From assembly GCA_032718475.1 (NCBI GenBank), contig JAUCBJ010009044.1, positions 1-64,000 on the forward strand: a stretch of 64,000 nt of DNA, read 5' to 3'. The stretch is from Nemertoderma westbladi. Its lineage: Eukaryota; Animalia; Xenacoelomorpha. The notes beneath the pieces were generated by a model, which was not told the origin of the DNA, did no database searches, and saw nothing but the letters and a program-made list of their open reading frames with translations. The position numbers were made by a program, and so were the translations under genes. Shown here piece by piece: positions 1-64,000 of the stretch (its first letter is position 1; each line of letters begins with the position of its first letter).

Positions 1-3000
1 ACATTTCCATCACGATTTAAGAGCTGACATGACACTTTCATCACGATTTAAGAGCTGACTTGATACTTTCATCACGATTTAAGAGCTGACTTGATACTTT
101 CATCACGATTTAAGAGCTGACTTGATACTTTCATCACGATTTAAGAGCTGACTTGATACTTTCATCACGATTTAAGAGCTGACTTGATACTTTCATCACG
201 ATTTAAGAGCTGACTTGACACTTTCATCACGATTTAAGAGCTGACTTGATACTTTCATCACGATTTAAGAGCTGACTTGACACTTTCATCACGATTTAAG
301 AGCTGACTTGATACTTTCATCACGATTTAAGAGCTGACTTGACACTTTCATCACGATTTAAGAGCTGACTTGACACTTACATCACGATTTAAGAGCTGAC
401 TTGACACTTTCATCACGATTTAAGAGCTGACTTGATACTTTCATCACGATTTAAGAGCTGACTTGACACTTTCATCACGATTTAAGAGCTGACTTGATAC
501 TTTCATCACGATTTAAGAGCTGACTTGACACTTTCATCACGATTTAAGAGCTGACTTGACACTTTCATCACGATTTAAGAGCTGACTTGATACTTTCATC
601 ACGATTTAAGAGCTGACTTGATACTTTCATCACGATTTAAGAGCTGACTTGACACTTTCATCACGATTTAAGAGCTGACTTGACACTTTCATCACGATTT
701 AAGAGCTGACTTGATACTTTCATCACGATTTAAGAGCTGACTTGACACTTTCATCACGATTTAAGAGCTGACTTGACACTTTCATCACGATTTAAGAGCT
801 GACTTGATACTTTCATCACGATTTAAGAGCTGACTTGATACTTTCATCACGATTTAAGAGCTGACTTGACACTTTCATCACGATTTAAGAGCTGACTTGA
901 TACTTTCATCACGATTTAAGAGCTGACTTGACACTTTCATCACGATTTAAGAGCTGACTTGACACTTTCATCACGATTTAAGAGCTGACTTGACACTTTC
1001 ATCACGATTTAAGAGCTGACTTGACACTTTCATCACGATTTAAGAGCTGACTTGATACTTTCATCACGATTTAAGAGCTGACTTGATACTTTCATCACGA
1101 TTTAAGAGCTGACTTGACATTTTCATCACGATTTAAGAGCTGACTTGATACTTTCATCACGATTTAAGAGCTGACTTGACACTTTCATCACGATTTAAGA
1201 GCTGACTTGATACTTTCATCACGATTTAAGAGCTGACTTGACACTTTCATCACGATTTAAGAGCTGACTTGACACTTTCATCACGATTTAAGAGCTGACA
1301 TGACACTTTCATCACGATTTAAGAGCTGACTTGATACTTTCATCACGATTTAAGAGCTGACTTGATACTTTCATCACGATTTAAGAGCTGACTTGACACT
1401 TTCATCACGATTTAAGAGCTGACTTGATACTTTCATCACGATTTAAGAGCTGACTTGACACTTTCATCACGATTTAAGAGCTGACTTGATACTTTCATCA
1501 CGATTTAAGAGCTGACTTGACACTTTCATCACGATTTAAGAGCTGACTTGACACTTTCATCACGATTTAAGAGCTGACTTGACATTTTCATCACGATTTA
1601 TGAGCTGACTTGACATTTTCATCACGATTTAAGAGCTGACTTGACACTTTCATCACGATTTAAGAGCTGACTTGACATTTTCATCACGATTTAAGAGCTG
1701 ACTTGACACTTTCATCACGATTTAAGAGCTGACTTGACATTTTCATCACGATTTAAGAGCTGACTTGACACTTTCATCACGATTTAAGAGCTGACTTGAC
1801 ACTTTCATCACGATTTAAGAGGTGACTTGACACTTTCATAACGATTCAAGAGGTGACTTGACACTTTCATAACGATTTAAGAGCTGACTTGACACTTTCA
1901 TCACGATTTAAGAGCTGACTTGACACTTTCATCACGATTTAAGAGCTGACTTAACACTTTCATCACGATTTAAGAGCTGACTTGACACTTTCATCGCGAT
2001 TTATGAGCTGACTTGACATTTTCATCACGATTTAAGAGCTGACTTGACACTTTCATCACGATTTAAGAGCTGACTTGACATTTTCATCACGATTTAAGAG
2101 CTGACTTGACACTTTCATCACAATTTAAGAGGTGACTTGACACTTTCATAACGATTTAAGAGGTGACTTGACACTTTCATCACGATTTAAGAGCTGACTT
2201 GACATTTTCATCACGATTTAAGAGCTGACTTGACACTTTCATCACGATTTAAGAGCTGACTTGACACTTTCATCACGATTTAAGAGGTGACTTGACACTT
2301 TCATAACGATTTAAGAGGTGACTTGACACTTTCATAACGATTTAAGAGCTGACTTGACACTTTCATCACGATTTAAGAGCTGACTTGACACTTTCATCAC
2401 GATTTAAGAGGTGACTTGACACTTTCTTAACGATTTAAGAGGTGACTTGACACTTTCATAACGATTTAAGAGCTGACTTGACACTTTCATCACGATTTAA
2501 GAGCTGACTTGATACTTTCATCACGATTTAAGAGCTGACTTGACATTTTCATCACGATTTAAGAGCTGACTTGACACTTTCATCACGATTTAAGAGCTGA
2601 CTTGATACTTTCATCACGATTTAAGAGCTTACTTGACATTTTTATCACGATTTAAGAGCTGACTTGACACTTTCATCACGATTTAAGAGCTGACTTGACA
2701 CTTTCATAACGATTTAAGAGCTGACTTGATACTTTCATCACGATTAAGAGCTGACTTGACATTTTCATCACGATTTAAGAGCTGACTTGACACTTTCATC
2801 ACGATTTAAGAGCTGACTTGACACTTTCATCACGATTTAAGAGCTGACTTGACACTTTCATCACGATTTAAGAGCTTACTTGACACTTTCATAACGATTT
2901 AAGAGCTGACTTGACACTTTCATCACGATTTAAGAGCTGACTTGACATTTTCATCACGATTTAAGAGCTGACTTGACACTTTCATCACGATTTAAGAGCT

Positions 3001-3821
3001 GACTTGACAGTTTCATCACGATTTAAGAGCTGACTTGACAGTTTCATCACGATTTAAGAGCTGACTTGACACTTTCATCACGATTTATGAGCTGACATGA
3101 CACTTTCATCACGATTTAAGAGCTGACTTGATACTTTCATCACGATGTAAGAGCTGACTTGACATTTTCATCACGATTTAAGAGCTGACTTGACAGTTTC
3201 ATCACGATTTAAGAGCTGACTTGACACTTTCATCACGATTTAAGAGCTGACTTGATACTTTCATCACGATTTAAGAGCTGACTTGACACTTTCATCACGA
3301 TTTAAGAGCTGACTTGACACTTTCATCACGATTTAAGAGCTGACTTGACACTTTCATCACGATTTAAGAGCTGACTTGACACTTTCATCACGATTTAAGA
3401 GCTGACTTGACACTTTCATCACGATTTAAGAGCTGACTTGATACTTTCATCACGATTTAAGAGCTGACTTGACACTTTCATCACGATTTAAGAGCTGACT
3501 TGATACTTTCATCACGATTTAAGAGCTGACTTGACACTTTCATCACGATTTAAGAGCTGACTTGATACTTTCATCACGATTTAAGAGCTGACTTGACACT
3601 TTCATCACGATTTAAGAGCTGACTTGATACTTTCATCACGATTTAAGAGCTGACTTGACACTTTCATCACGATTTAAGAGCTGACTTGATACTTTCATCA
3701 CGATTTAAGAGCTGACTTGACACTTTCATCACGATTTAAGAGCTGACTTGATACTTTCATCACGATTTAAGAGCTGACTTGACACTTTCATCACGATTTA
3801 AGAGCTGACTTGATACTTTCA
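1..3821. repeat. 31-bp tandem satellite (CTTTCATCACGATTTAAGAGCTGACTTGAYA), ~123 copies, intronic, runs off the left edge
   Basis: Period of 31 read directly (CACGATTTAA at 11, 42, 73...). No spacers. Ends ~40 bp before the splice acceptor at 3861-3862. Confidence 0.97.
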
Positions 3822-3862
3822 TACGGCCGAACAACTGACTGACTAATCACACTTCTCCGCAG

Positions 3863-5668
3863 ATCTAAGACAGTTGTTGAATCCGCTGATGGTGAATGCG
3901 AAGGTTCCGACACAGAAACCACTGACTGCGATCCCGAACAATGTCCCAACGCTTGCATCATTGATGGTATCACATATCTCCCCGGAGAAACATGGCCTAT
4001 TGATGAATGTAACTACTGTGAATGTGTTGAAGGCTCGTCTGTCTGTGAGAATGAAGAATGCCCCGGTAGGTTAAATATATTTAAATTAATTAATTTGTTT
4101 TAATTTAATAATTCTATCATGTAATACTAAAGTGTTAATACTAAATTTACTAAATCTACTAACTGTTGCCTTGGTGATTTACTTGAGAATATTACCTCTT
4201 TGTATAAGAATAACAAATTATTTTAATTTCCTCGGCGAATTAATAATAATAATTATCAATAAAGGGAAAGGATCGAGTTACATTGGCACGCTTTTCTAAT
4301 CAAAACAATAAACGAAAGTCAATAGATCAAAGTCAATATTCTTATAATATATAGTATATTATATGATGTAATAATATAGACTATTGAATTTTTGCTTGTA
4401 CTTGTACAAATACTGTGATTTATTTATTTATTTATCGACAGACTGTATTGAATCCTTTGATCCCGATGTGTCCTACTGCCAGGGCTGCGCGCCGGCCGCT
4501 AACTGCTCTACAGACTGTAGCTGCTCCGACATCGGACTATCGATCAACTCCCAAGGACAATGCGTCAATCAGGAGGATTGCCAAGTGTGCGTGGACGCTG
4601 ACGGCCGAGTGTGGCAGGTGGGTTGCAGAATATGTTAATAGATACGATTTAAACATATTATGTAATTAATAAAAAGTAATTAATTAAGTACATTTTTCTT
4701 CTCGGTTTGTTTAATTAGTTTGACATTTGTAGCACCTGCACTAACACCAGCTGCTACATGATAGCACTAATTTACTAATATGTTTTACCAGCTGGGAGAG
4801 ACAGAATCTCGTGGATACCCTGAATGTGACGTCTGTGAGTGCCAGAACGACGGTAATGTTGTCTGCAGCGGCTCCACTTGCTCTCCTCTTGTCTGCGGTC
4901 CAGACGAAGTAGAACAGATGAACCCTGGTGAATGTTGTCCCGTCTGCGTTCCAGAAAGTGAGTAGATTTTGTTAACTTGTTTCTATTTTTTTTACAATTT
5001 CATGTAATAGTTTCTTATTGTACCTTTCTACACGCCTTCATCCATTTGTACTACACAGCCTCATAATTTGTATATTATTTTCAGCTCCCGAGGAATGCGC
5101 TCCTGTCATAACAGATGAAGTACTCACGGTTAATAACGGCGGAAATGTATGCATTGCAGATAGTGTTGAGATGACACAATGCCAAGGAACATGTCCATCA
5201 AGTCAAGTAAGGATGATCATTTTGTAAATATTTACAAATTAAATCTATAATTCCTGACTTCGTCACCCTAATCTAAGAAATAATATCCAAGTTTCTACTA
5301 AAGCAAGTGCAAGTTTAAATAACATCAAGTAGTATTCTGTCGTTTAAAATATATTGAAACAATTCCACCTGGAATAGTCGCCATATGCAACTTCAGGTTC
5401 AATAACAACTAAGGCAGTGGGTCATAAGTTATATTATAAATAACTCCATCGTTTCATTTACAAACTGACTTATTTTCTTTATTTGCAAATTTTGTAGTCA
5501 GTTGTGATGAATCTACTCAGCAATGTATTTGAACTTGCTACTGACTGCAAGTGCTGTACCGGTGTACCAGAAAACAGGATGATTACCTTCCAATGCCCGG
5601 GTGGCAGCACAATATCACTAAATGTACCCTCAATCTCTCAATGCCAATGCCGCCAGTGTACGCCCTAG
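3863..5668 (+). CDS. 3' end (last 5 coding exons) of a cysteine-rich secreted protein: TSP1 tail, VWC, TIL-like, VWC, C-terminal cystine knot (SCO-spondin / gel-forming mucin / VWF-like)
   Basis: Exons 3863-4065, 4442-4617, 4792-4957, 5085-5206 and 5498-5668 have GT-AG introns with compatible phases. Translation includes CIIDGITYLPGETWPIDECNYCECVEGSSVC (VWC), CDVCECQNDGNVVC...GECCPVC (VWC) and CQGTCPS...DCKCC...FQCPGG...CQCRQCTP* (CTCK). Exact orthology cannot be settled from this fragment. Confidence 0.88.
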
Positions 5669-7302
5669 AAGGTTAGTAAATGTTAGTGTACCCTCAATCT
5701 CTCAATGCCAATGCCGCCAGTGTACGCCCTAGAAGGTTAGTAAATGTTAGTGTACCCTCAATCTCTCAATGCCAATGCCGCCAGTGTACGCCCTAAAAGG
5801 TTAGTAAATGTTAGTGTACCCTCAATCTCTCAATGCCAATGCCGCCAGTGTACGCCCTAAAAGGTTAGTAAATGTTAGTGTACCCTCAATCTCTCAATGC
5901 CAATGCCGCCAGTGTACGCCCTAGAAGGTTAGTAAATGTTAGTGTACCCTCAATCTCTCAATGCCAATGCCGCCAGTGTACGCCCTAGAAGGTTAGTAAA
6001 TGTTAGTGTACCCTCAATCTCTCAATGCCAATGCCGCCAGTGTACGCCCTAGAAGGTTAGTAAATGTTAGTGTACCCTCAATCTCTCAATGCCAATGCCG
6101 CCAGTGTACGCCCTAGAAGGTTAGTAAATGTTAGTGTACCCTCAATCTCTCAATGCCAATGCCGCCAGTGTACGCCCTAGAAGGTTAGTAAATGTTAGTG
6201 TACCCTCAATCTCTCAATGCCAATGCCGCCAGTGTACGCCCTAGAAGGTTAGTAAATGTTAGTGTACCCTCAATCTCTCAATGCCAATGCCGCCAGTGTA
6301 CGCCCTAAAAGGTTAGTAAATGTTAGTGTACCCTCAATCTCTCAATGCCAATGCCGCCAGTGTACGCCCTAGAAGGTTAGTAAATGTTAGTGTACCCTCA
6401 ATCTCTCAATGCCAATGCCGCCAGTGTACGCCCTAGAAGGTTAGTAAATGTTAGTGTACCCTCAATCTCTCAATGCCAATGCCGCCAGTGTACGCCCTAG
6501 AAGGTTAGTAAATGTTAGTGTACCCTCAATCTCTCAATGCCAATGCCGCCAGTGTACGCCCTAGAAGGTTAGTAAATGTTAGTGTACCCTCAATCTCTCA
6601 ATGCCAATGCCGCCAGTGTACGCCCTAGAAGGTTAGTAAATGTTAGTGTACCCTCAATCTCTCAATGCCAATGCCGCCAGTGTACGCCCTAGAAGGTTAG
6701 TAAATGTTAGTGTACCCTCAATCTCTCAATGCCAATGCCGCCAGTGTACGCCCTAGAAGGTTAGTAAATGTTAGTGTACCCTCAATCTCTCAATGCCAAT
6801 GCCGCCAGTGTACGCCCTAAAAGGTTAGTAAATGTTAGTGTACCCTCAATCTCTCAATGCCAATGCCGCCAGTGTACGCCCTAAAAGGTTAGTAAATGTT
6901 AGTGTACCCTCAATCTCTCAATGCCAATGCCGCCAGTGTACGCCCTAGAAGGTTAGTAAATGTTAGTGTACCCTCAATCTCTCAATGCCAATGCCGCCAG
7001 TGTACGCCCTAGAAGGTTAGTAAATGTTAGTGTACCCTCAATCTCTCAATGCCAATGCCGCCAGTGTACGCCCTAGAAGGTTAGTAAATGTTAGTGTACC
7101 CTCAATCTCTCAATGCCAATGCCGCCAGTGTACGCCCTAGAAGGTTAGTAAATGTTAGTGTACCCTCAATCTCTCAATGCCAATGCCGCCAGTGTACGCC
7201 CTAGAAGGTTAGTAAATGTTAGTGTACCCTCAATCTCTCAATGCCAATGCCGCCAGTGTACGCCCTAGAAGGTTAGTAAATGTTAGTGTACCATCAATCT
7301 CT
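5623..7302 (+). repeat. 64-bp tandem array (26 copies) made of the last codons, stop codon and splice donor of the cystine-knot gene
   Basis: Unit TGTACCCTCAATCTCTCAATGCCAATGCCGCCAGTGTACGCCCTAGAAG|GTTAGTAAATGTTAG. The first copy is the real exon end (VPSISQCQCRQCTP*). Confidence 0.97.
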
Positions 7303-7543
7303 AACCGCTAACACCCTAAACATGCCTTCAATGTTGTAGCTTTAATATTTTAAAATGGGTTCATTTAAAATACTGAATTGCTTGTAACACCGTGATATAT
7401 GTGGTATACACCGTGGTACACCGTGGTATACACCGTGGTACACTTACTCTATATATATCGTAATAATTATTGTATAAGTAATTACTTACTATTATTATCT
7501 AGCGAATTGAGAATATTACACATTATTGTTATTATATTTTCAG

Positions 7544-7870
7544 ATAGGAGAACCGTAATATTTCTAACCCGACGTCGACTTTAAGGATATATCGATGGAT
7601 TCAGTTTCGACCGAACTGGTTCATTGATCGATAGTATAATATACTCTCATAGCGCCGCCCACATAGTTTACTATATTATAATAATATAAGTGTTCATTGA
7701 AAGGTTGACTAGTTTTATTTTGTGGAGGTGACTTGTGTAATAACTTGTGCTGTATAATATATAATTCTATTTAATGTGAGGGCGCCGCTTGTTAGTTAGA
7801 AATGCATTGAAAATTTTCCATTGTTTATGTAAGGTTGTGGGAACAATGGAATAAAAAAAAAGTAATACAC
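7544..7870 (+). other. Probable non-coding 3' UTR exon of the cystine-knot gene, with a poly(A) signal
   Basis: Acceptor TATATTTTCAG ends at 7543 and can pair with the donor 3 nt after the stop codon. AATAAA at 7850-7855. The 3' end is inferred. Confidence 0.5.
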
Positions 7871-8110
7871 ATTAAACTTTGCAAAGTTCTGAATCTCTCT
7901 TCTTCATTTTTTTAATTGGGGAAAAATAAACATATAAATAACTTTGATATCACAAAATAATAATTTAAAAATAAAATTAATGAACACTATATACACAAAT
8001 AAATAGAAATTTCGTAGTTCCAATAAATATACTACAAGGTAAAGTGTTTATGTTTTTGGAATTAATAAACTTAATGTAAACCGAGATTTGGGTTGCGATG
8101 GTTAATAATC

Positions 8111-49484
<41,374 letters not shown>

Positions 49485-49767
49485 CTGTTAATGTTAAAAA
49501 GTACAATTAACTCGATATTATTGACATAATTTAGTAGTAAATATATTGATATAGCTGAAGTGATATGTGAATGATCGTTGCCACCCCAGCCAACTTAGTA
49601 GTCTAATCCCCCGCAGCACCCCAGTTGGGGGGTGGTGGCTTTAAGATGCAATAAAAATTCACCCCTCTATGGGATAAAATCGACGGGGCAAATAACAGCC
49701 GATTACTCCCAAAAATAAAATAAAAACTGTAAGCCGTTCTATTGCCTTTAGTTTATTGTTTTGGTAT

Positions 49768-52700
49768 GCCCCCCCCCCCACTCACCTGTAACTCCAATCA
49801 CTCACCTGTAATTCCAACCATCAAGGCGGCTGTCTTCTCGTCCCCCTATGGGTCTGCCCCCCTCCCATTTACCTGTAACTCCAACCAACTTGGCGGCTGT
49901 CTTCTCGTCCTATGGGTCTGCCCCCCTCCCATTTACCTGTAACTCCAACCAACTAGGCGGTTGTAATCTCGTCCCCCTATGGGTCTGCCCCCCTCCCATT
50001 TACCTGTAACTCCAACCAACTTGGCGGCTGTCTTCTCGTCCCCTTATGGGTCTGCCCCCCTCCCATTTACCTGTAACTCCAACCAACTTGGCGGCTGTCT
50101 TCTCGTCCCCCTATGGGTCTGCCCCCCTCCCATTTACCTGTAACTCCAACCAACTTGGCGGCTGTCTTCTCGTCCCCTTATGGGTCTGCCCCCCTCCCAT
50201 TTACCTGTAACTCCAACCAACTTGGTGGCTGTCTTCTCGTCCCCCTATGGGTCTGCCCCCCTCCCATTTACCTGTAACTCCAACCAACTTGGCGGCTGTC
50301 TTCTCGTCCCCTTATGGGTCTGCCCCCCTCCCATTTACCTGTAACTCCAACCAACTTGGCGGCTGTCTTCTCGTCCCCCTATGGGTCTGCCCCCCTCCCA
50401 TTTACCTGTAACTCCAACCAACTAGGCGGTTGTAATCTCGTCCCCCTATGGGTCTGCCCCCCTCCCATTTACCTGTAACTCCAACCAACTTGGCGGCTGT
50501 CTTCTCGTCCCCTTATGGGTCTGCCCCCCTCCCATTTACCTGTAACTCCAACCAACTTGGCGGCTGTCTTCTCGTCCCCATATGGGTCTGCCCCCCTCCC
50601 ATTTACCTGTAACTCCAACCAACTAGGCGGTTGTAATCTCGTCCCCCTATGGGTGTGCCCCCCTCCCATTTACCTGTAACTCCAACCAACTAGGCGGCTG
50701 TCTTCTCGTCCCCCTATGGGTCTGCCCCCCTCCCATTTACCTGTAACTCCAACCAACTAGGCGGTTGTAATCTCGTCCCCCTATGGGTCTGCCCCCCTCC
50801 CATTTACCTGTAACTCCAACCAACTTGGCGGCTGTCTTCTCGTACCCTTATGGGTCTGCCCCCCTTCCATTTACCTGTAACTCCAACCAACTAGGCGGCT
50901 GTCTTCTCGTCCCCCAATGGGTCTGCCCCCCTCCCATTTACCTGTAACTCCAACCAACTAGGCGGCTGTAATCTCGTCCCCCCATGGGTCTGCCCCCCTC
51001 CCATTTACCTGTAACTCCAACCAACTAGGCGGTTGTAATCTCGTCCCCCTATGGGTCTGCCCCCCTCCCATTTACCTGTAACTCCAACCAACTTGGCGGC
51101 TGTCTTCTCGTCCCCTTATGGGTCTGCCCCCCTCCCATTTACCTGTAACTCCAACCAACTTGGCGGCTGTCTTCTCGTCCCCATATGGGTCTGCCCCCCT
51201 CCCATTTACCTGTAACTCCAACCAACTAGGCGGTTGTAATCTCGTCCCCCTATGGGTCTGCCCCCCTCCCATTTACCTGTAACTCCAACCAACTAGGCGG
51301 CTGTCTTCTCGTCCCCCTATGGGTCTGCCCCCCTCCCATTTACCTGTAACTCCAACCAACTAGGCGGTTGTAATCTCGTCCCCCTATGGGTCTGCCCCCC
51401 TCCCATTTACCTGTAACTCCAACCAACTTGGCGGCTGTCTTCTCGTACCCTTATGGGTCTGCCCCCCTTCCATTTACCTGTAACTCCAACCAACTAGGCG
51501 GCTGTCTTCTCGTCCCCCAATGGGTCTGCCCCCCTCCCATTTACCTGTAACTCCAACCAACTAGGCGGCTGTAATCTCGTCCCCCCATGGGTCTGCCCCC
51601 CTCCCCCACCCCACTCACCTGTAACTCCAACCAACTTGGCGGCTGTCTTCTCGTACCCTTATGGGTCTGCCCCCCTTCCATTTACCTGTAACTCCAACCA
51701 ACTTGGCGGCTGTCTTCTCGTCCCCATATGGGTCTGCCCCCCTCCCATTTACCTGTAACTCCAACCAACTAGGCGGCTGTAATCTCGTCCCCCCATGGGT
51801 CTGCCCCCCTCCCATTTACCTGTAACTCCAACCAACTAGGCGGTTGTAATCTCGTCCCCCTATTGGTCTGCCCCCCTCCCATTTACCTGTAACTCCAACC
51901 AACTTGGCGGCTGTCTTCTCGTCCCCTTATGGGTCTGCCCCCCTCCCATTTACCTGTAACTCCAACCAACTTGGCGGCTGTCTTCTCGTCCCCATATGGG
52001 TCTGCCCCCCTCCCATTTACCTGTAACTCCAACCAACTAGGCGGTTGTAATCTCGTCCCCCTATGGGTCTGCCCCCCTCCCATTTACCTGTAACTCCAAC
52101 CAACTAGGCGGCTGTCTTCTCGTCCCCCTATGGGTCTGACCCCTCCCATTTACCTGTAACTCCAACCAACTAGGCGGTTGTAATCTCGTCCCCCTATGGG
52201 TCTGCCCCCCTCCCATTTACCTGTAACTCCAACCAACTTGGCGGCTGTCTTCTCGTCCCCTTATGGGTCTGCCCCCCTCCCATTTACCTGTAACTCCAAC
52301 CAACTAGGCGGCTGTCTTCTCGTCCCCTTATGGGTCTGCCCCCCTCCCATTTACCTGTAACTCCAACCAACTAGGCGGCTGTCTTCTCGTCCCCCTATGG
52401 GTCTGCCCCCCTCCCATTTACCTGTAACTCCAACCAACTAGGCGGCTGTCTTCTCGTCCCCCTATGGGTCTGCCCCCCTCCCATTTACCTGTAACTCCAA
52501 CCAACTAGGCGGTTGTAATCTCGTCCCCCTATGGGTCTGCCCCCCTCCCATTTACCTGTAACTCCAACCAACTTGGCGGCTGTCTTCTCGTACCCTTATG
52601 GGTCTGCCCCCCTTCCATTTACCTGTAACTCCAACCAACTAGGCGGCTGTCTTCTCGTCCCCCAATGGGTCTGCCCCCCTCCCATTTACCTGTAACTCCA

Positions 52701-54579
52701 ACCAACTAGGCGGCTGTAATCTCGTCCCCCCATGGGTCTGCCCCCCTCCCCAACCCCACTCACCTGTAACTCCAACCAACTTGGCGGCTGTCTTCTCGTA
52801 CCCTTATGGGTCTGCCCCCCTTCCATTTACCTGTAACTCCAACCAACTTGGCGGCTGTCTTCTCGTCCCCATATGGGTCTGCCCCCCTCCCATTTACCTG
52901 TAACTCCAACCAACTAGGCGGTTGTAATCTCGTCCCCCTATGGGTCTGCCCCCCTCCCATTTACCTGTAACTCCAACCAACTAGGCGGCTGTCTTCTCGT
53001 CCCCCTATGGGTCTGCCCCCCTCCCATTTACCTGTAACTCCAACCAACGAGGCGGTTGTAATCTCGTCCCCCTATGGGTCTGCCCCCCTCCCATTTACCT
53101 GTAACTCCAACCAACTAGGCGGTTGTAATCTCGTCCCCCTATGGGTCTGCCCCCCTCCCATTTACCTGTAACTCCAACCAACTTGGCGGCTGTCTTCTCG
53201 TACCCTTATGGGTCTGCCCCCCTTCCATTTACCTGTAACTCCAACCAACTAGGCGGCTGTCTTCTAGTCCCCCAATGGGTCTGCCCCCCTCCCATTTACC
53301 TGTAACTCCAACCAACTAGGCGGTTGTAATCTCGTCCCCCTATGGGTCTGCCCCCCTCCCATTTACCTGTAACTCCAACCAACTAGGCGGCTGTCTTCTC
53401 GTCCCCCTATGGGTCTGCCCCCCTCCCCACTCACCTGTAACTCCAACCAACTAGGCGGTTGTAATCTCGTCCCCCTATGGGTCTGCCCCCCTCCCATTTA
53501 CCTGTAACTCCAACCAACTTGGCGGCTGTCTTCTCGTACCCTTATGGGTCTGCCCCCCTTCCATTTACCTGTAACTCCAACCAACTAGGCGGCTGTCTTC
53601 TCGTCCCCCAATGGGTCTGCCCCCCTCCCATTTACCTGTAACTCCAACCAACTAGGCGGCTGTCTTCTCGTCCCCTTATGGGTCTGCCCCCCTCCCATTT
53701 ACCTGTAACTCCAACCAACTTGGCGGCTGTCTTCTCGTCCCCTTATGGGTCTGCCCCCCTCCCATTTACCTGTAACTCCAACCAACTTGGCGGCTGTCTT
53801 CTCGTCCCCCTATGGGTCTGCCCCCCCTCCCATTTACCTGTAACTCCAACCAACTAGGCGGTTGTAATCTCGTCCCCCTATGGGTCTGCCCCCCTCCCAT
53901 TTACCTGTAACTCCAACCAACTAGGCGGCTGTCTTCTCGTCCCCCTATGGGTCTGCCCCCCTCCCATTTACCTGTAACTCCAACCAACTAGGCGGTTGTA
54001 ATCTCGTCCCCCTATGGGTCTGCCCCCCTCCCATTTACCTGTAACTCCAACCAACTTGGCGGCTGTCTTCTCGTCCCCTTATGGGTCTGCCCCCCTCCCA
54101 TTTACCTGTAACTCCAACCAACTTGGCGGCTGTCTTCTCGTCCCCTTATGGGTCTGCCCCCCTCCCATTTACCTGTAACTCCAACCAACTTGGCGGCTGT
54201 CTTCTCGTCCCCTTATGGGTCTGCCCCCCTCCCCCTCCCCACTCACCTGTAACTCCTACAAACTAGGCGGTTGTCTTCTCGTCCCCCAATGGGTCTGCCC
54301 CCCTCCCATTTACCTGTAACTCCAACCAACTAGGCGGCTGTCTTCTCGTCCCCCTATGGGTCTGCCCCCCTCCCATTTACCTGTAACTCCAACCAACTAG
54401 GCGGTTGTAATCTCGTCCCCCTATGGGTCTGCCCCCCTCCCATTTACCTGTAACTCCAACCAACTAGGCGGCTGTCTTCTCGTCCCCCTATGGGTCTGCC
54501 CCCCTCCCATTTACCTGTAACTCCAACCAACTAGGCGGCTGTAATCTCGTCCCCCTATGAGTCTGCTCCCCTCCCATTT
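49768..54579 (-). repeat. 67-bp tandem array (~71 copies) of a MYO7A exon 3' end (GTR[L/R]QPPSWLELQ) plus splice donor
   Basis: Minus-strand unit ...GGGACGAGATTACAGCCGCCTAGTTGGTTGGAGTTACAG|GTAAATGGGAGGGGGGCAGACCCATAG. QPPSWLELQ is the conserved end of MyTH4-1 and directly precedes exon 49484-49311 in myosin VII proteins. Confidence 0.96.
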
Positions 54580-56051
54580 TGTAAAGGCTTTTGCGGAATT
54601 AGCTGGTTATTTTCCCCGCAAAGTACTCTGTAGTTGTTTTAACGGACATAAAAAGCCGTTTCCTTACTGTACCGGTGTTTTAGTGGACATAAAAGCCATT
54701 TCTTCTGTATGTGTACTTTAGCGGACATAACTAGCGATTTTATGTCGCAATAAGCCAAATACTCTAAACATCGGAACTCCGATGACGACATCTATCAGCT
54801 GTGTCCACGTGTAACTTTTCTTTGTTCTTTGTTCGTTCTTTGTTCGGTCGACCAATCAGAGCGGTTTTGACTCTGTGTTGGAGATTGTATACAGAAACTC
54901 ATGCAATTCAGTCAGTGTGTGTATCTTTCTAAGCCCCGAACACCGGCTTAGGATTCTTCTGTACTTCTGTGGAAGTTTCAGACTTTAGCCAAACATTAGT
55001 AGGCTTTGGTCATAGAAACGTATAACTGTTATCGCACCACATATCCTAATTCTATCAATGCAAATCATATTGTCAACTACAAACACCGCATTTTTACTGC
55101 TATTTACTGTCGGTTATTAATTATATCAGTTGATGGAATATTGTTATATTTGGATAATATCGATAAATAATCATAAAACCCCCAATCTTCTTGATATACT
55201 GAAGGTAAGAGACCGGTTACATATAACAATTGCGACTTACATTAAAGTGGTTTTGGAGTGAATCTAATGCTATTTCATAGGCACTACATGAGTCGGTTGC
55301 TGTTCTCTTTATATGTGACTAAAATTAGTGAAGGTCGGCAGATCGGTGTGCAGCATTGTGCGGTAGTGTGCATGATTGTGACTGATAACAAAGCATCTCC
55401 TAAAGAATGCGCTTTATATGTGAATCAATAGCCATCCCGTTGCGTCTAGTGTAAGTCATAACTCTGTTTACATATTTAGAGCGCCACGTCCTAAAGGAAC
55501 TGTTAATATTTCCCGAAAGTGAATAATATTGGTCAGAGATTATATATTAACAATCAGTCGAATAATACAGTAGGCCTACACCGCAATAAGGTCAAAGCTT
55601 CCGAATCCAGTCTCCCGGGTATATCCAGCGGGTGAATGGTCGCGCATAGACTGGCTTCGGCTAATGTAGTGTATCAAATACTCGTCATAGGCTAAAGTCG
55701 ATTTATAATCTAGAAGACATCTAAATTTGGCAGGTTAAACTACTAAAGGTCTGAAAGCGCGAACAATAACAGTTATAGAGTTCTGATTGCAGTGTAGGCA
55801 ATAAATACAGTCTAAAGTACCGGTCGACCGGTAACTAGTAGGCCTGACTGCCTAACTACCCGAACCGGTACTTACAGCAGTACAGGTACAGCAGTATTAT
55901 TCGATTTTGATAATTATATACCGGTAGGTCTTAATAAGTAATCGGGGACGCCTGGTTTTTATTGGGATTTTACTTAGGCCTATTTCTGTCAGTTTTATTT
56001 ATTTGAAAGTTAATATTGAACAGAAGACGTGTAAGCCTGCTCAGATTGTAC

Positions 56052-56625
56052 AGATAATTTGTAGGCTGGACTGTTGTCTGACTGTTGTTAAGTCTGAAGA
56101 GATTGCGGTGTGTGTAGAGTGTATATCCGATAAAGTACTAGTTAGGAACGTAGGGGCTTCCAGTGCTGTGAGGTAAATCCCCCTGAAAGAATAAGTCGTA
56201 CTACTCGGTTAGAATGCATACTAACTAACCATTTCGGAGTCTGCATATACTGTAGTTTGTTTAGGCTTGATAGTAGTCTGCCAGCGTTTGGTCTGTATTT
56301 TTGTTTGTGTAGTCTGTACGGGTAGCGTAATATTTCTTATTTAGATAATTTGTAGGCTGGATTGTTGCCTGGCTGTTGTTAGGTCTGAAGAGATTGCGGT
56401 GTGTGTAGAGTGTATGTCCGATAAAGTACTAGTTAGGAACGTAGGGGCTTCCAGTGCTGTGAGGTAAATCCCCCTGATAGAATAAGTCGTACTACTCGGT
56501 TAGAACGCATACTAACTAACCATTTCGGAGTCTGCATATACTGTAGTTTGTTTGGGCTTGATAGTAGTCTGCCAGTGTTTGGTCTGTATTTTATTTGAGT
56601 AGTCTGTACGCGTAGCGTAATATTT
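56052..56625. repeat. Two direct copies of a ~291-bp unit in the retrotransposon leader
   Basis: AGATAATTTGTAGGCTGG... at 56052 and 56343, near-identical through GTAGCGTAATATTT. Confidence 0.9.
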
Positions 56626-57485
56626 ATTATTCAGAGTTTATGCGATTATTCGCAACATTCACAACCCCAAGTTTATTCCTACAGTAATTGTGCTTGTTAT
56701 ACATACCGTTATAGTTAAATTAACCCCGGTACTACATCAGGGCTGCTTGGCGTAGGTAAAGACTGGTGATTTTGTGCCCCGGTCACTCCAGCAGATACCA
56801 TGGTTCTTTTGGCTGTACAAGTATTTCTAACTGCTGATTATTTGTTGTATAAGTACTTGTACCTAATTTAGGGTTTAGTGTACAGTGCTTTCCGAAGGTA
56901 ATTAGTGTGTAGGCAGTATATTTGTGTTGTAAAGTGGTTAATAGGCACGTTGGCTCTGGTAGGCCGCGGTAATTAACTTCTAGGTAGGAACACTCCGTGA
57001 TACATAACGTAGTACTTATAGCGATACGGCTATAAGTCGTCAGACGGTGGTATTTTTCCTATCTGGACAACGCAGTATATTTACTACTGCTTTGTTATTT
57101 TCAAATACCGTAGAATCCTGTCTGTTTGTAATAACCAGATATTCTAACCCTTTGTTAGGCTGGTTTGTAGACTTCTTGTAAAATTACCCTAAAAATTCGT
57201 ACGTGTAAATTTCTGTGTTTATTTAGAGATTGTAATCTCACCCCGAATTGTACGTAATTTGTAGTATTAAGTAACTTAGGTAAATTAGAATTATTTGTTT
57301 TTAGTGTCCAACAAGTAGCACTTCACTGAGAGCGCACAGCTTCTGTGTAGTGACTCCTTCCCAGAAATAATAACATTTATTTCAAATATTGACAAAACCC
57401 ATTATACGGGTATATATATATATTATAAATCAACTCAAACCGATTTATAAATTAGTAGGCCTGTCATACAACAATTAGGTCTTAA

Positions 57486-58849
57486 CCCTATTACCACTGG
57501 GGCGGGGGGCCGAATCGGCCCCTTCCTAGTTTTTAGTTGCTGTAACTATGCAACCACATTACGTACCGGCCCAATTTTTTGTGAGAATTAGCCAAATTTA
57601 ATGCCGCATCTTTTGCAAATAACGCCGTTGCAATTGGATTTCTACTTTTCGATGTGGGTGCCACCTCAAAATTTGGTCTCCAGCACCAAATTTTTTGAAA
57701 TTTTCGAATTTTACAAAGTCATTCGTGATTTAGTAATTATTTATGTTTGGGCTATTTTTATTTATTTTTATTGGTTTGGATCACTCTAATGCTCTATACA
57801 AGTATGTAAGTGTAGTGGTACGTCATTTTTGGAGCACCAAATTTAGGGCGTGGCACTTTAAAATTTCAAAATTACTTTATTCGGAAAATTTACTAAAGTT
57901 CTGATTTCTAAGCATTTTTATTGGTTATCTGGAGCGCTGAATCGATTAAAAGTAGTATAGAAGCCTGAAGACTTAGTGGTTCGCCATTTTTGGTGCACCA
58001 AAATTAGGGCGTGGCACTTCAAATTTTGAAAAATACGAGATTCGGAAAATACACTAAAGTTTTGATTTGCAAAGCATTTTTATAGGTTTTCTGGAGCCTT
58101 GAATCGATTCAAAGCAATATAGAAGCCTGAAGACTTAGTGGTTCGCCATTTTTGGTGCACCAAAATTAAGGGCGTGGCACTTCAAATTTTGAAAAATACG
58201 AGATTCGGAAAATTCACTAAAGTTTTGATTTCAAATTAATTTTATAGGTTTTCTGGAGCGCTGAATCGATTGAAAGTAATATAGAAGCCTCAAATTTTTC
58301 AAAATTTTAAGTGCCACGCCCTAATTTTGGTGCACCAAAAATGGCGAACCACTCAGTCTTCAGGCTTCTAAATTACTTTCAATCGATTCAGCGGCCCAGA
58401 AAACCCATAAAGATGCGTTGAAATAAAAAAATTAGGGGCATTTTCTGAATATCTAATTTTTCAAAATTTGAAGTGCCACGCCCACTTCTTATAGGTGCAC
58501 GAAAAATAGCATCCACTTCAATTTTTGGAAGTGGAATATAATCACATTCGATTCAGCGTCTTGAAAAACCTACTAAATCTAGCCAACACTGCCACACTAT
58601 TAGTTTTTAGAAAACGAAAAATTTTGTAATTTTGTCCTGGGACTACTTTTATTTTTCATCAAAATTATGAGTCCCTGCTTATGAAATTTTAACTTTTTAA
58701 GGTTTGGTAGTGTTCATCTATAGTTGTTTCACCAACAGCCCAAATTTTGTAGCATTTCATTGGACGACTACAAAAATATAGTGGGTGGGCCGAATCGGCC
58801 CCCCCCCCCCAGTGGTGCTAATGGTCAAAACACCCCAGTGGTAATAGGG
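57486..58849. mobile_element. piggyBac-like MITE (1364 bp) with internal ~160-bp direct and inverted repeats
   Basis: TTAA|CCCTATTACCACTGGGG ... CCCCAGTGGTAATAGGG|TTAA. Subterminal GGGCCGAATCGGCCC at both ends. Confidence 0.88.
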
Positions 58850-59341
58850 TTAATATCAGTTGGACTACTGCTTAAATAACGGTAATAAAGTAAAGTAAAG
58901 TAACCAAGTAACCCCTAAAATTCAGAAATTCAATTATTCTAAAATAATTGATATACCGGTATTTACAATAGGCTTATTATATTTATATTTATATATTTGC
59001 GCTGAAATTATATACCGGTATTCTGTAATTAATTCTAGTCTATAATTATACTTATATATACTATAAGTGTAAGCTGTATACCGGTATTCACGATAGGCCT
59101 ATTATATATTTATATATATTTGCGCTGAAATTATATACCGGTATTCTGTGACAAACCTAGTCTGTAATAATACTTATATATATACTATAAGCATACCGGT
59201 ATTCTAATATATTATATATATATATCACGTTACACTGAGTAACAGTATCGGTAATTAATTACTAGGCTAACAGTTGATACTGAATTACTAGACTTGCTTT
59301 AACTGTAATATAGCAGTAGGCATTCAACTGTACAAACAAAC

Positions 59342-62300
59342 ATGTCTGACACAAAGCAAAACCTGTCAGACAGTCTCCTAGATACAACCATCTGTGACCC
59401 AGACAGGAGTGTGGAATGTGTGAGACCGAAGTTCAATTCACCTCCTACTGTAAGAAAGATCATCCCTCCAGTAGTAGTATCAGACCCTAGGCTAGTCCAA
59501 CACCGTAGGTCTATCATAGGCACTCGAGCTCAGGTCAAGTGGGACCAAGAAGCAGCAGAACAGCAGCAACACTCGAGCCGAGAACTTATTTCTCAGCGGC
59601 CCGACAGCTCCAGTAGTGCGGATACTGTAGAGCTGACACCCGAGCGCGGAGCAAAGATGACGGAGGCGGTTTATTCGGATCCCCTTCTCATCCTTCCTGC
59701 GGCCGTACTCACTAGGTTATTGATTGCGGTGGAAGAACACCAGATCGATTGGGCGAGAAGTAAGCGATCGACCAAGGATAGTTATGCGGGATACACAAGG
59801 GAAGAACTGAAGTCTATTGTCGAGTCGCAATGGAACTTCCCCGGAGCCGGAATCCCGTTTGACTTATCGGAGGCTGCCTGGGAAGACATACACAGAATGG
59901 GAGTGACAAAGGAAACCAGCAATCCAGCTGTGTGGAAGAGGTCAGCAGCAGGATACGTACATGGATTCTTCAGCTCTATGGAGCGATTAGAGGAACAACT
60001 GTTTCGACAACCCCAAGGACCTCAAGAGCAGGGAGAGCTGCTTTATCAAGTTAGAGAAAGAATTCTAAGAATCAGACTAATCTTATCGGCCTTTGAGGAG
60101 GCTTCGAAAAGAAGACAAGACACGTCGTTGCAAGTTGCCGTAAAGACTTGGTTTCAGCGGGTGAGTCTCAAAGTTCAAGGAACTGCCCCGTGGAAATCTC
60201 AGTTGGCTGAGCGCTCAACCCATGGAGAATCAACAGACGCTACCTTTTCCCAAGTGGAAAGTGAAGTGACAGCAGAAAAACCGCATAAGAGGGATGCTAT
60301 TGACATCTATCTGTCAGACTATCAACGATTTGTAGGTGACGAAGAGTTGAGGAGACGGCTGTCTGGACTTCGCCCTAATAGTGAAGGAGCCAAGCTTGTG
60401 TTGGACGCAATCGATGTGGAAATGTTAGCTGCGAACCAAGGTAAATTTGATGAAAGACTCCGCATCGCTAGGGTCCAAGAAGAACAAGTCAAGAAAAAAC
60501 GTATAGAAGACAGAAAGACAACAGCAGCGGCAGCGGCAGTGGCAGTGGCCGAAGCGGAAAGAAAAGCGGCAGTGGCAGCGGCCGAAGCGGAAAGAAAAGC
60601 GGCAGTGGCAGCGGCAGAGGCAGTGGCAGAAGCAGAACGAAGAGCATCTGAAGAGACCACCCAACTAGAGTTGGAAAATATTCAAGAGAATCAAGACTGC
60701 ATAAATAAACAGTTAACAGCTAGTCAAATGCAGATGATGAGTCGATCTACTCCCAAAAGACAGGGATATACATCATCTGAGGAAGGCGATACCACCGATC
60801 CTGAAGGCGGAGGAAATAGATCTCGTCTAAGCAGACGTAGAAGAATGTCCCACCGTCAGAAATTGCCTGATTTGCCCCCAGCTGTTAGAAGGCAACTAAC
60901 TAACACAGACTTAGGTAGTACAGAACCCACAGACCAAATAATTAAAATAGAAAGACTCCCTACTATAGTAGATGAGCCTGAAATAATTAGGCCTGTTCTT
61001 GAAACCACCCCTTCGGTGATAGAGACACCTGTGCTCCCAGAACCTACCTCTAAATTCCCTTTGCACAGCACTAAACTACCTGTGCCCCACAAAACAACCC
61101 CTGAGACAGTTCCTGTCCTGGACTCCGAGCGAAATATCAATGATTTGTCGCCCGTTGTCCCTCGTCTACCCGCTACTACGTTGGCGGCTCCCGCTTCGGC
61201 GGTCGAGTGGGTGGATGAGGGGCGGCGGGGGATGAATCTCCTGCTCGGGCAGATGCAGGAGACTGTTCATCAGTTTAAAGGAACAGTAAGGGAAAGTAGG
61301 TTAGAGTTGCAAAAAGTGCAGCAGAGTATCGCATTAGAACGCGATAAATTGGTAAATAGACAAAGGGGTATACCACCACCCCCTGTAACAATGTGTCAAC
61401 CTGTTAGGTCTGAAGTATTTCATGCGCAAGGTGTGGAGCCTACACGCATCTATACTGCTAGTGAAGGGGAAACTCCTATAGTAAACCCTATTAAGGGTAA
61501 TTATAAACCTGTTGACAATGATATTCCCTATAGACCTGATCATAATCCGAGAAATTTATATACCGATAACTCGATATTAAATAATACGATGGCCCAAGAA
61601 AGTTTTACGCATCAAATGGCTAGAACCGAAGCCCGTCAAGCGGTAAAGGTGGGAGAGATAGTCAAGTACAATGGAAATGAGATGAAATGGTTACCTTTTA
61701 ATGAATATTACAAAGATAACATACAGAACTCTGTGCTATCTAACGGAGAGAAACTTATATTCCTCATCGAGTGCTTGGAAGGATCTCCCAAGTTAATGGC
61801 GTTAAAGTTTATTGGACATCCAGATGGATTAAGACAAGTTTGGGATACCCTAAACATCAGGTATGGTAATAGGAATAACATAGCTAAGTATTTGTATGCA
61901 AAATTGGTAGCGCCCCGAAAGTTCATTAGCAGCGGGATTATAGAGTTTTCCGATGAGATTCAAGAGATCTGTAGACAATTAGATTGGCTAGGTAAGTCTC
62001 ATTAATATCAGAGTTCTATGGTTATTGGAGCCGTGGCCTCTACTTTACCTAAGGGTGGAGTAGGCACCATCTGGGATAAGAAAGTGTTATATATAATGGA
62101 ACAACAACGACGAGACCCTACCATGGTCGATCTCATGTCATTCTTAGATGGAGAAGTGAAATTACAGCTCCTAAAGCAGTCCAGAGAGAAGACACCGGAA
62201 AACAAGGTAAGTGAGAAACCCGTTTCTAGGAGAAAGGTAACACCAGTGTGTTATACCGACGACGGCGAAAGCCAGGCTTCTCAAGAAGAAGACAGCGGAA

Positions 62301-64000
62301 AAGACACTGAAAGATCTTATTATGTCAACAAAACGCCTAAAGACGTATGTAAATTCAAGTCTCGAACCAATGACAGGAGAGAACAGGTAAGAAAAACGCC
62401 TCCTACGTCTCCTAAGAGAATTCAGGTAAGAAAGCCCGAAGAAAGAACGAGTGTGCACAACGTTACTCAAAATAAGGTAAGTAATATCAAACCGAAATGT
62501 GCGCTGTGTGACGGGACCCACCGTTTGAATGTGTGTGATGAATTCCTAAAGAAATCATTAAAGGATAGACGGGAAGTCATGTGGGATAAGCGGTTGTGTT
62601 ATAATTGCCTCAGACAAGGACATCAACGGCGAACCTGTTACTCCGACGCAAGGTGTGCGAAGTGCGGCGCAAAACATCATCTCTTGTTGCATACTGAATT
62701 CGAACGAAACAGCCCGAGTCAGGTAAGTGATTCTGAACTACATGTCCAATTCAGTGATGTGAACGACACTGACCAAAGTTCTGAGATGGAAGGATTCTAT
62801 ACGGACGAATTCTCCGATGAAAACGAATCCTGTTACCTGATAAATACCGCAGTGTATCGAGCACTTATGTATGAAAAGGACACCGATAGCGAGCTCCCCC
62901 TAACTACTTCTGACCGACAACCATCTTGGAAAGCACCAACTTCCAATGTAGGAATCCGAGAATTTCCCGTAGTACAGTTGAGGGTCCATGGACCTAAAAG
63001 GAGTTATATAGTGAACGCCCTCCTTGACTCCGGTAGCACAGGAACATTCATCGACAAAGAACTAGCCGAAGACATCTTTGCTGGACAACCCAAGTTCCGA
63101 ACTAAGTTAAACATGTCAGGAATTATGCAGGTTTGGAAATCTACAGTAATAGCGGATTATTATGTAGGTGCGTTGTCCACCCCCCAGGATGAACTAGGAG
63201 AACACAGTATAAGGTCAGTAAAAATGGTGGCGATAAAGAACTTCGCTACCAGCCAAGTAGAACCTTATAACTGGGATGAGGACGATTCCACCCAGCAGCT
63301 TAATATACCTAGATTCAACACAGATTACCCTGGAGTGCAAATACTCATCGGCCATAATGCGCATGAGGCGCTTGAGACATTGGAGAAACGGCCTGCTCAA
63401 CCGCAACCACTACAAGCCTATGCGGGAAGAACTAGAGTGGGTTGGTACTTTACTGGCCCTTCCTATAGAACTCTCATGGAAAGATTACCAAAAGAACAGG
63501 TATATCAAGTAAAGGAATGGGAAGTAGAGAGCAGTGAGGTAGATGACCCAACTGAGGGAACACCATACTCATCAGATAATGACGATATCCACCAACTCTT
63601 CGACGAGGAGAATACCATCGATCTCCTTACGGAAAACGAGACTTGGCAAAACCAAGTGAACCTCTGTCAACTCATTCGTCCATCAGGACAAGTCGACTAT
63701 AACGACGAACTGAATGACGTAATCGAGCGCTATAATGCGAAGACTCGAGATGAACACGCCGTACGATTCTTTACTCAAGAGGCTGTAGAGCCCAATTCCT
63801 ACGATAAGGCCCTATCGGTAGAAGAAGAAAGAGCCAAGCAGATCCAGGAGACAACTACACGTTTTCTTAAAGATCAAGGTAGATATGAAATCGGTCTCCC
63901 ATTCCGAAAGCGAGAACCAAAATTCATAAACAACCGACCCTTGGCGGAGAAAAGAATTGCTCAACTACATCGACGCCTTACGGCAAATGCTTCAGATAAA
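59342..64000 (+). pseudogene. BEL/Pao gag-pol polyprotein (DUF1759-type gag, three Cys/His knuckles, aspartic protease), interrupted by one in-frame TAA at 62003-62005
   Basis: KYNGNEMKWLPFNEYY...LSNGEKLIFLIECLEG is the BEL gag core. The same frame continues after the TAA with CALCDGTHRLNVC...CYNCLRQGHQRRTC...CAKCGAKHHLLLH, then VNALLDSGSTGTFID (protease) and GRYEIGLPFR...NNRPLAEKR (pre-RT region). Confidence 0.9.

Follow-up and report, generated by a model that had tools for sequence, protein, structure and literature searches.

How does a gene tolerate a splice site that has been copied, again and again, into the adjoining intron? Five human donor-spanning minisatellites of 5–25 copies have been described (the 37-bp variable number tandem repeat (VNTR) in intron 7 of F7, IFI6 (6-16), CBS, LMNB2, and PDGF), and for F7 it was shown experimentally that the donor is chosen by 5'-to-3' scanning (PMC1557585). 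The 25-bp VNTR in ABCA7 intron 18 reaches up to ~427 units; retention of one unit leads to an early stop, and array length affects splicing (PMC5954066). Donor-spanning VNTRs whose decoy sites are silent or bound for nonsense-mediated decay (NMD) are therefore already on record (F7, CBS, 6-16, ABCA7). Here we analyze a 64,000-nt stretch of Nemertoderma westbladi contig JAUCBJ010009044.1 (the window), in which five tandem arrays with unrelated units derive from splice junctions of two adjacent genes, one encoding myosin VIIa (MYO7A) and the other a mucin/vWF-like protein. The acceptor side, the scale, and the density are what is unusual at this locus. We propose, with a probability of roughly 0.6, that the arrays are neutral, tolerated minisatellites and not a splicing-control system.

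The resemblance to the F7 group is close: the first unit spans the boundary, identical donors follow it in the intron, and splicing is confined to the first (or first few) (PMC1557585). However, that group consists of donors, with one array per gene, whereas here we find two acceptor arrays, and four or five arrays in two adjacent genes. As in ABCA7, a donor lies inside the unit, hundreds of units are possible, and decoy use produces a frameshift and an early stop; at ABCA7, in contrast to this locus, length polymorphism and a splicing effect have been measured, and the unit starts at GT without an exon part. Likewise, the units derive from AG|GT junctions, as in intron gain by duplication of AG|GT proto-splice sites (PMC2891723). 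In that process the intron is itself a duplicated exonic segment; here the duplications sit on existing junctions, and the host introns retain 103–353 bp, mostly unique sequence, once each array is collapsed to one unit. Vertebrate junction-overlapping megasatellites (bioRxiv 2021.07.19.452908) also amplify an exon-intron segment in tandem, but their units are at least 90 bp long and encode protein repeats, while those described here are 29–67 bp and break the frame if used. The short repeats termed spl-TR (PMC10078293) affect splicing and are not repeated sites, and the available portions of PMC5941971 and PMC4039745 hold nothing on junction-spanning units. We found no natural acceptor-side array, no animal genome-wide test of junction-spanning arrays, and no account for animals of a link between splicing architecture and the birthplace of repeats in a literature survey whose coverage was incomplete, with supplements and, for the first of these, most subscription papers outside it. 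An initial annotation of this DNA knew of no description of the phenomenon as a system and supposed either splicing strict enough to ignore the decoys or a regulatory role for the arrays. Single cases are known, however: ABCA7 shows documented mis-splicing linked to copy number, with NMD (PMC5954066), and the ignoring of perfect decoys is documented ordinary behavior in F7 and four other human genes (PMC1557585).

Arrays were detected with Tandem Repeats Finder, and array statistics were taken on positions 1–54579. From 39 rows, 14 arrays were kept (1–54579, period ≥17, score ≥100); overlapping duplicates, TA/TAA and AT-rich low-score rows, all rows beyond 54579, a 23-bp doublet 12 nt from an acceptor, and 22-, 25-, and 20-bp low-score rows were left out. 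A laxer run of the program gave zero additional junction-straddling arrays. Together the 14 arrays make up 36,736 of the 54,579 leading bases (67%), and a splice site is absent from nine of them. The other five, present at the places and in the sizes given by the initial annotation, are as follows.

5623..7302, plus strand: 64-bp array of 26.2 units, each with 49 nt of exon end including the stop and 15 nt of intron; first donor 5671|5672 predicted to be real, 25 decoys.
8867..23744, minus strand: 47-bp array of 316 units, each combining the final 36 nt of the intron with the first 11 nt of the exon; at least 314 acceptors, of which the last, 8878|8877, is the real one.
42294..42368, minus strand: 29-bp array of 2.6 units; acceptors at 42357, 42328, and 42299, the last one used (spliced contig).
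42890..43433, minus strand: 33-bp array of 16.5 units, each with 8 nt of exon end and 25 nt of intron; the frame demands the first donor, 43426|43425, and the other 16 are decoys.
49779..54579, minus strand: 67-bp array of 71 units, each pairing the final 13 codons of the next MYO7A exon upstream with ~27 nt of intron head.

The donor is repeated in the 64-, 33-, and 67-bp arrays (26, 17, and 72 splice-like donors, respectively) and the acceptor in the 47- and 29-bp arrays (314 and 3 acceptors). Within an array the units match at 93–100%; between arrays they are unrelated and have no common skew, structure, or motif, and all five trace to junctions reading AG|GT. The initial annotation was thus right that the units are unrelated and junction-derived and that the decoys need to be ignored. 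We also note a partial last unit of 15–17 nt in the 64-, 29-, 33-, and 17-bp arrays, the other nine checked having 0–7 nt; these four may have been seeded by a short direct repeat on either side of filler DNA.

Which of these junctions are real? The minus-strand gene is MYO7A, one exon of which matches PDB 3pvl at 4.7e-19. A 17-exon model built from tblastn encodes 927 open amino acids with GT-AG at all introns, and is 62% identical to an insect orthologue over 925 amino acids with 7 gap positions (vertebrate orthologues, ~60%).

8111..49484, minus strand: 3' part of MYO7A in 17 exons (homology, open frame, GT-AG, four junctions matched by a spliced contig).
49484-49311, 48518-48403, 48304-48193, 47611-47441, 43670-43426, 42624-42449, 42299-42090, 41670-41571, 40280-40025, minus strand: exons 1–9 of the model.
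39687-39473, 37573-37353, 36903-36710, 36042-35857, 35384-35268, 33019-32924, 8877-8770, and 8197 to a stop near 8111, minus strand: exons 10–17 of the model.

MYO7A homology demands three array-straddled junctions: 8877|8878 (47-bp), 42299|42300 (29-bp), and 43425|43426 (33-bp). The claim that all five arrays straddle real junctions is accordingly upheld for these three, in which the unit contains a working splice site by homology and, in one case, by a spliced contig as well; the 64-bp junction is predicted from motif, and the 67-bp array stands apart from its exon, the body of which is not in the window. Two intron positions, 32924/8877 and 37353/36903, seem to be shifted relative to human by 12 nt and 1 nt, respectively; the intron with the apparent 12-nt shift is the one that carries the 47-bp and 17-bp arrays.

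Independent sequence runs bear on whether the arrays exist and on which copy is used. Part of the window is present in four runs from three studies, in which X1 may be the source sample and X2 and X3 belong to study P2; runs X5 and X6 share next to no words with the window. Contigs were placed on 39430–42925. The 29-bp triplication, identical in S1 and S2, is crossed gap-free by contigs from X1, X2, and X3. Contigs of the same three runs match into the second 33-bp unit and end there, where summed depth rises from 12–27 to 85–103; this is ~8–18 times the flank and is not a copy number, and short-read contigs collapse arrays. Because the X2 and X3 contigs contain the 29- and 33-bp repeats, both arrays exist in at least one further study; contig support covers these two and not the 47-, 64-, or 67-bp arrays. 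It is on these grounds that we regard as highly improbable the idea that assembly error created the arrays or set their lengths. The 24 unit types among the 71 units of the 67-bp array, which recur in order, also speak against it. In its favor are the separation of the 67-bp array from its exon body, the identity of 265 of the 315 pieces of the 47-bp array, and a 100-N gap at 19005–19104, because of which the length of that array (at least 313 decoys across 14.9 kb) is uncertain.

The transcript evidence comes from X4, a run taken for DNA. It contains a 3363-nt spliced contig in which five exon-only pieces abut exactly as the MYO7A model predicts, so that four model junctions are matched. This contig, X4 record 25, joins the exon ending at 42449 to 42299, the last 29-bp acceptor, without decoy letters. 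The farthest 29-bp decoy outscores the used site (11.3 versus 9.9), so that position, not strength, decides. As to which copy is used, then, the exon-proximal acceptor is seen at the 29-bp array, and the frame points to the exon-proximal copy at the 33- and 47-bp arrays. X4 is uncovered at the first 33-bp unit, which is uninformative, as a decoy-using transcript would match just 28 nt. If it were true to the myosin model to its end, the X4 contig would extend to ~7851; the AATAAA of the neighboring gene is at 7850.

That gene is arranged tail to tail with MYO7A. It encodes VWC domains and a C-terminal cystine knot; VWC scores above the Pfam cut-off in two of five exons, and Cys_knot, at 23.6 bits, is marginally below its cut-off of 24.

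3863-4065, 4442-4617, 4792-4957, 5085-5206, 5498-5671, plus strand: last five coding exons of the VWC/cystine-knot gene (open frame, all GT-AG).
7544..7860, plus strand: predicted non-coding last exon (acceptor score second of 23; AATAAA at 7850).

The stop codon occupies 5666–5668 and the donor 5671|5672 lies 3 nt downstream, which makes the predicted intron, 5672–7543, a 3'UTR intron. It is predicted from motif: in leave-one-out scoring the donor reaches 11.2 (tied third of 21), the same as a myosin donor backed by homology, and the 7544 acceptor reaches 10.7 (second of 23). A coding last exon was ruled out, since the stop precedes the donor in every 64-bp copy. The sole variant among the 64-bp units (5 of 25) replaces one stop codon with another.

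The 67-bp array lies upstream of the myosin model. The 13 codons of its unit are conserved, and its intron head resembles the intron start at the 3' end of the array. When the window was searched with a profile that covers the 70 residues before these codons and was built on 19 distinct homologue segments, the body of the exon was not found; the profile matched only the paralogous second MyTH4 exon. The array is junction-derived but no more than a candidate for straddling a working junction. Between the array and the end of the window lie repeats and a DUF1759 retrotransposon frame, so the working first copy of the unit is probably farther upstream. The alternative that each unit is a complete micro-exon was rejected: the internal AG, at −5.2 to −7.7, scores below all 23 real acceptors, and each of the 19 distinct homologue segments carries an N ahead of GTR within an LxRTFxN motif that is missing here. 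In the old frame, three common single-base variants of the units at 49804–54579 (in 7, 20, and 28 of 71 units) are synonymous without exception, and a common double change affects a codon that differs between homologues (P = 0.009 for three of three; 0.06 with the double change counted as two). The copies may have been seeded from, or may be cycling through, the working first position.

What would decoy splicing do? In MYO7A, all nine modelled decoy choices stop the 927-aa frame early: at residue 273 for the 33-bp array (three modelled), at 343–355 for the 29-bp array (two), and at 892–899 for the 47-bp array (four). It is true, as the initial annotation observed, that the extra copies all lie on the intron side. 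Since nine of nine decoy uses truncate MYO7A, however, this is a survival condition and carries no information on mechanism. In the VWC/cystine-knot gene decoy use would leave the protein unaltered, and the first decoy would place the junction 67 nt instead of 3 nt beyond the stop. Under the vertebrate rule for NMD, the critical distance of a junction past the stop is 50–55 nt, and the decoy junction would lie beyond it. These consequences are what would be expected if the arrays were copy-number-tuned regulators, in which more decoys give more early-stop transcripts and lower gene output, and ABCA7, where unit retention causes a frameshift and length affects splicing (PMC5954066), is a precedent. 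We nevertheless consider such a role, which the initial annotation had raised, very unlikely. No evidence for regulation was found: the sole spliced contig takes the real site, and the arrays are young and unrelated, with no sign of conservation or of selection on copy number. A splicing effect alone would not amount to adaptation.

Are the arrays closer to junctions than chance would place them? The gene models total 44 junctions, or 45 with the 67-bp donor. Five of the arrays that lack a splice site lie near one.

1..3822, no strand: 31-bp intronic array, 123 units, ends 40 nt before acceptor 3863; contains no junction.
24000..32878, no strand: 17-bp array, ~525 units, 45 nt from donor 32924; contains no junction.
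35184..35264, no strand: 27-bp array, 3 units, 3 nt from donor 35268.
39187..39427, no strand: 60-bp array, 4 units, 45 nt from donor 39473.
47370..47419, no strand: 25-bp doublet, 21 nt from donor 47441.

The initial annotation had named all of these but the 27-bp array, which it missed. In the null model the arrays were collapsed to one unit each (18,380 bp) and placements wholly within exons were excluded; one window was tested, itself selected for the pattern. Straddling arrays number 5 of 14 versus 1.57 expected, with P = 0.013 for five, 0.06 for four, and 0.20 for three. With introns capped at 600, 400, and 250 bp the probability of at least five becomes 0.07, 0.13, and 0.32, and that of ten near arrays 0.009, 0.03, and 0.25. 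The median collapsed intron is 408 bp, and much of the intron length is transposon fill (depth >100,000 at 40366–40950; a reverse-transcriptase fragment). Junction clustering is a modest, null-dependent signal and is suggestive. A junction-seeking mutational process, as the initial annotation supposed, is not shown by values of 0.013 in a selected window and 0.07–0.13 with introns capped at 600–400 bp, and nucleation by R-loops is unsupported, as just two of the five units show G-skew in the sense strand.

Several observations weigh against the arrays being ordinary neutral minisatellites. Ten of the 14 arrays straddle a junction or lie within 45 nt of one, versus 3.35 expected (P = 0.0002), a threshold that is fitted in that it was taken post hoc from the initial annotation, with three of the arrays lying at 40, 45, and 45 nt. 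A threshold-free rank test gives P = 0.003 for the 14 arrays, 0.007 without the 67-bp array, and 0.017 without the 67- and 64-bp arrays. The transcript evidence is a single contig for one of the five arrays, and contigs lose rare isoforms. The real 47-bp acceptor is the second weakest of 23, and its use over 313 near-equal copies is read from the frame. Finally, the protection from deletion invoked below is our own suggestion. The two proximity results would be equally at home with a bias of array birth toward exon edges, genome-wide in this lineage, through chromatin, through recombination, or through DNA damage coupled to splicing. Tandem repeats are denser toward intron ends in the genomes of 31 plants and algae, the top motifs there being microsatellites (PMC3887541), and the partial last copy of 16–17 nt in three of the five units is a possible shared seed. 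We regard biased birth as possible but unlikely: its significance fades with plausible intron target sizes, the rank test among the nine non-straddlers gives P = 0.065, the units have no motif in common and G-skew in just two of five, the window is a single one picked for its pattern, and survival bias predicts the same picture.

We propose that the neutral minisatellites arise as follows. First, short tandem duplications in a repeat-prone region would at times take in a splice site. Such a duplication would be tolerated as long as one intact exon and its site persist, and, being neutral, it would then likely expand via slippage or unequal exchange. Second, the spliceosome would take the exon-adjacent copy, as observed at the 29-bp array. 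Donors may be chosen by 5'-to-3' scanning, as at F7, and an acceptor may be paired with the donor at the other end of its exon; the exon piece of a decoy lacks a donor within exon distance, which points to such pairing, and the 29-bp result fits. Third, rare mis-splices would bear early stops and would be cleared. The arrays would appear clustered at exons because unique intron sequence is short, exonic arrays are purged, exon-abutting arrays may be harder to delete, and the window was chosen for the pattern; protection from deletion beside exons would also cover the five near arrays without a splice site.

A further possibility, which we consider improbable, is that in this lineage minisatellites arise or survive preferentially at junctions throughout the genome and that acceptor arrays persist chiefly at AG|GT through a self-correcting ladder, in which splicing to a decoy would regenerate a donor that re-splices to the real acceptor, so that an essential gene could tolerate more than 300 perfect decoys. 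Both acceptor arrays (two of two) are at AG|GT acceptors versus 3 of 23 acceptors overall (P = 0.012, post hoc), and the 47-bp decoys read AG|GT. A recursive-splicing (ratchet) site is an AG with a usable donor directly behind it; the donor regenerated at a 47-bp decoy scores 5.1, within the low part of the range of real donors (3.8–13.1). The 29-bp decoys, by contrast, read AG|AT and have lost the GT.

Some arrays are probably carried by mobile elements, since one 18-bp motif family occurs in an array (33343–33583), inside a 186-bp palindrome (34705–34745), and in the 27-bp array (35184–35264). The introns of MYO7A hold a very high-copy element with inverted ends, two palindromic elements, and a reverse-transcriptase fragment, and a long terminal repeat (LTR) retrotransposon of BEL/Pao type lies at the end of the window.

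40366-41535, 41770-41886, 48623-48914, 34633-34818, 45540-47100: intronic mobile elements.
56051-56635: 291-bp doublet, preceding the DUF1759 element.
57813-58517: 162-bp palindromic element, preceding the DUF1759 element.
59309-64000, plus strand: LTR retrotransposon in antisense orientation within a MYO7A intron; of its two long frames, the first carries DUF1759.

If the arrays are neutral minisatellites, the mechanism is ordinary and the locus offers a powerful natural experiment on how a 3' splice site is chosen: an acceptor that is weak and sits behind at least 313 near-identical copies separates first-AG scanning, exon definition, and re-splicing. Such arrays are also an annotation hazard, giving rise to false exon ends and broken assemblies. 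Should a genome-wide bias toward junctions prove true instead, it would link splicing architecture to the birthplace of repeats.

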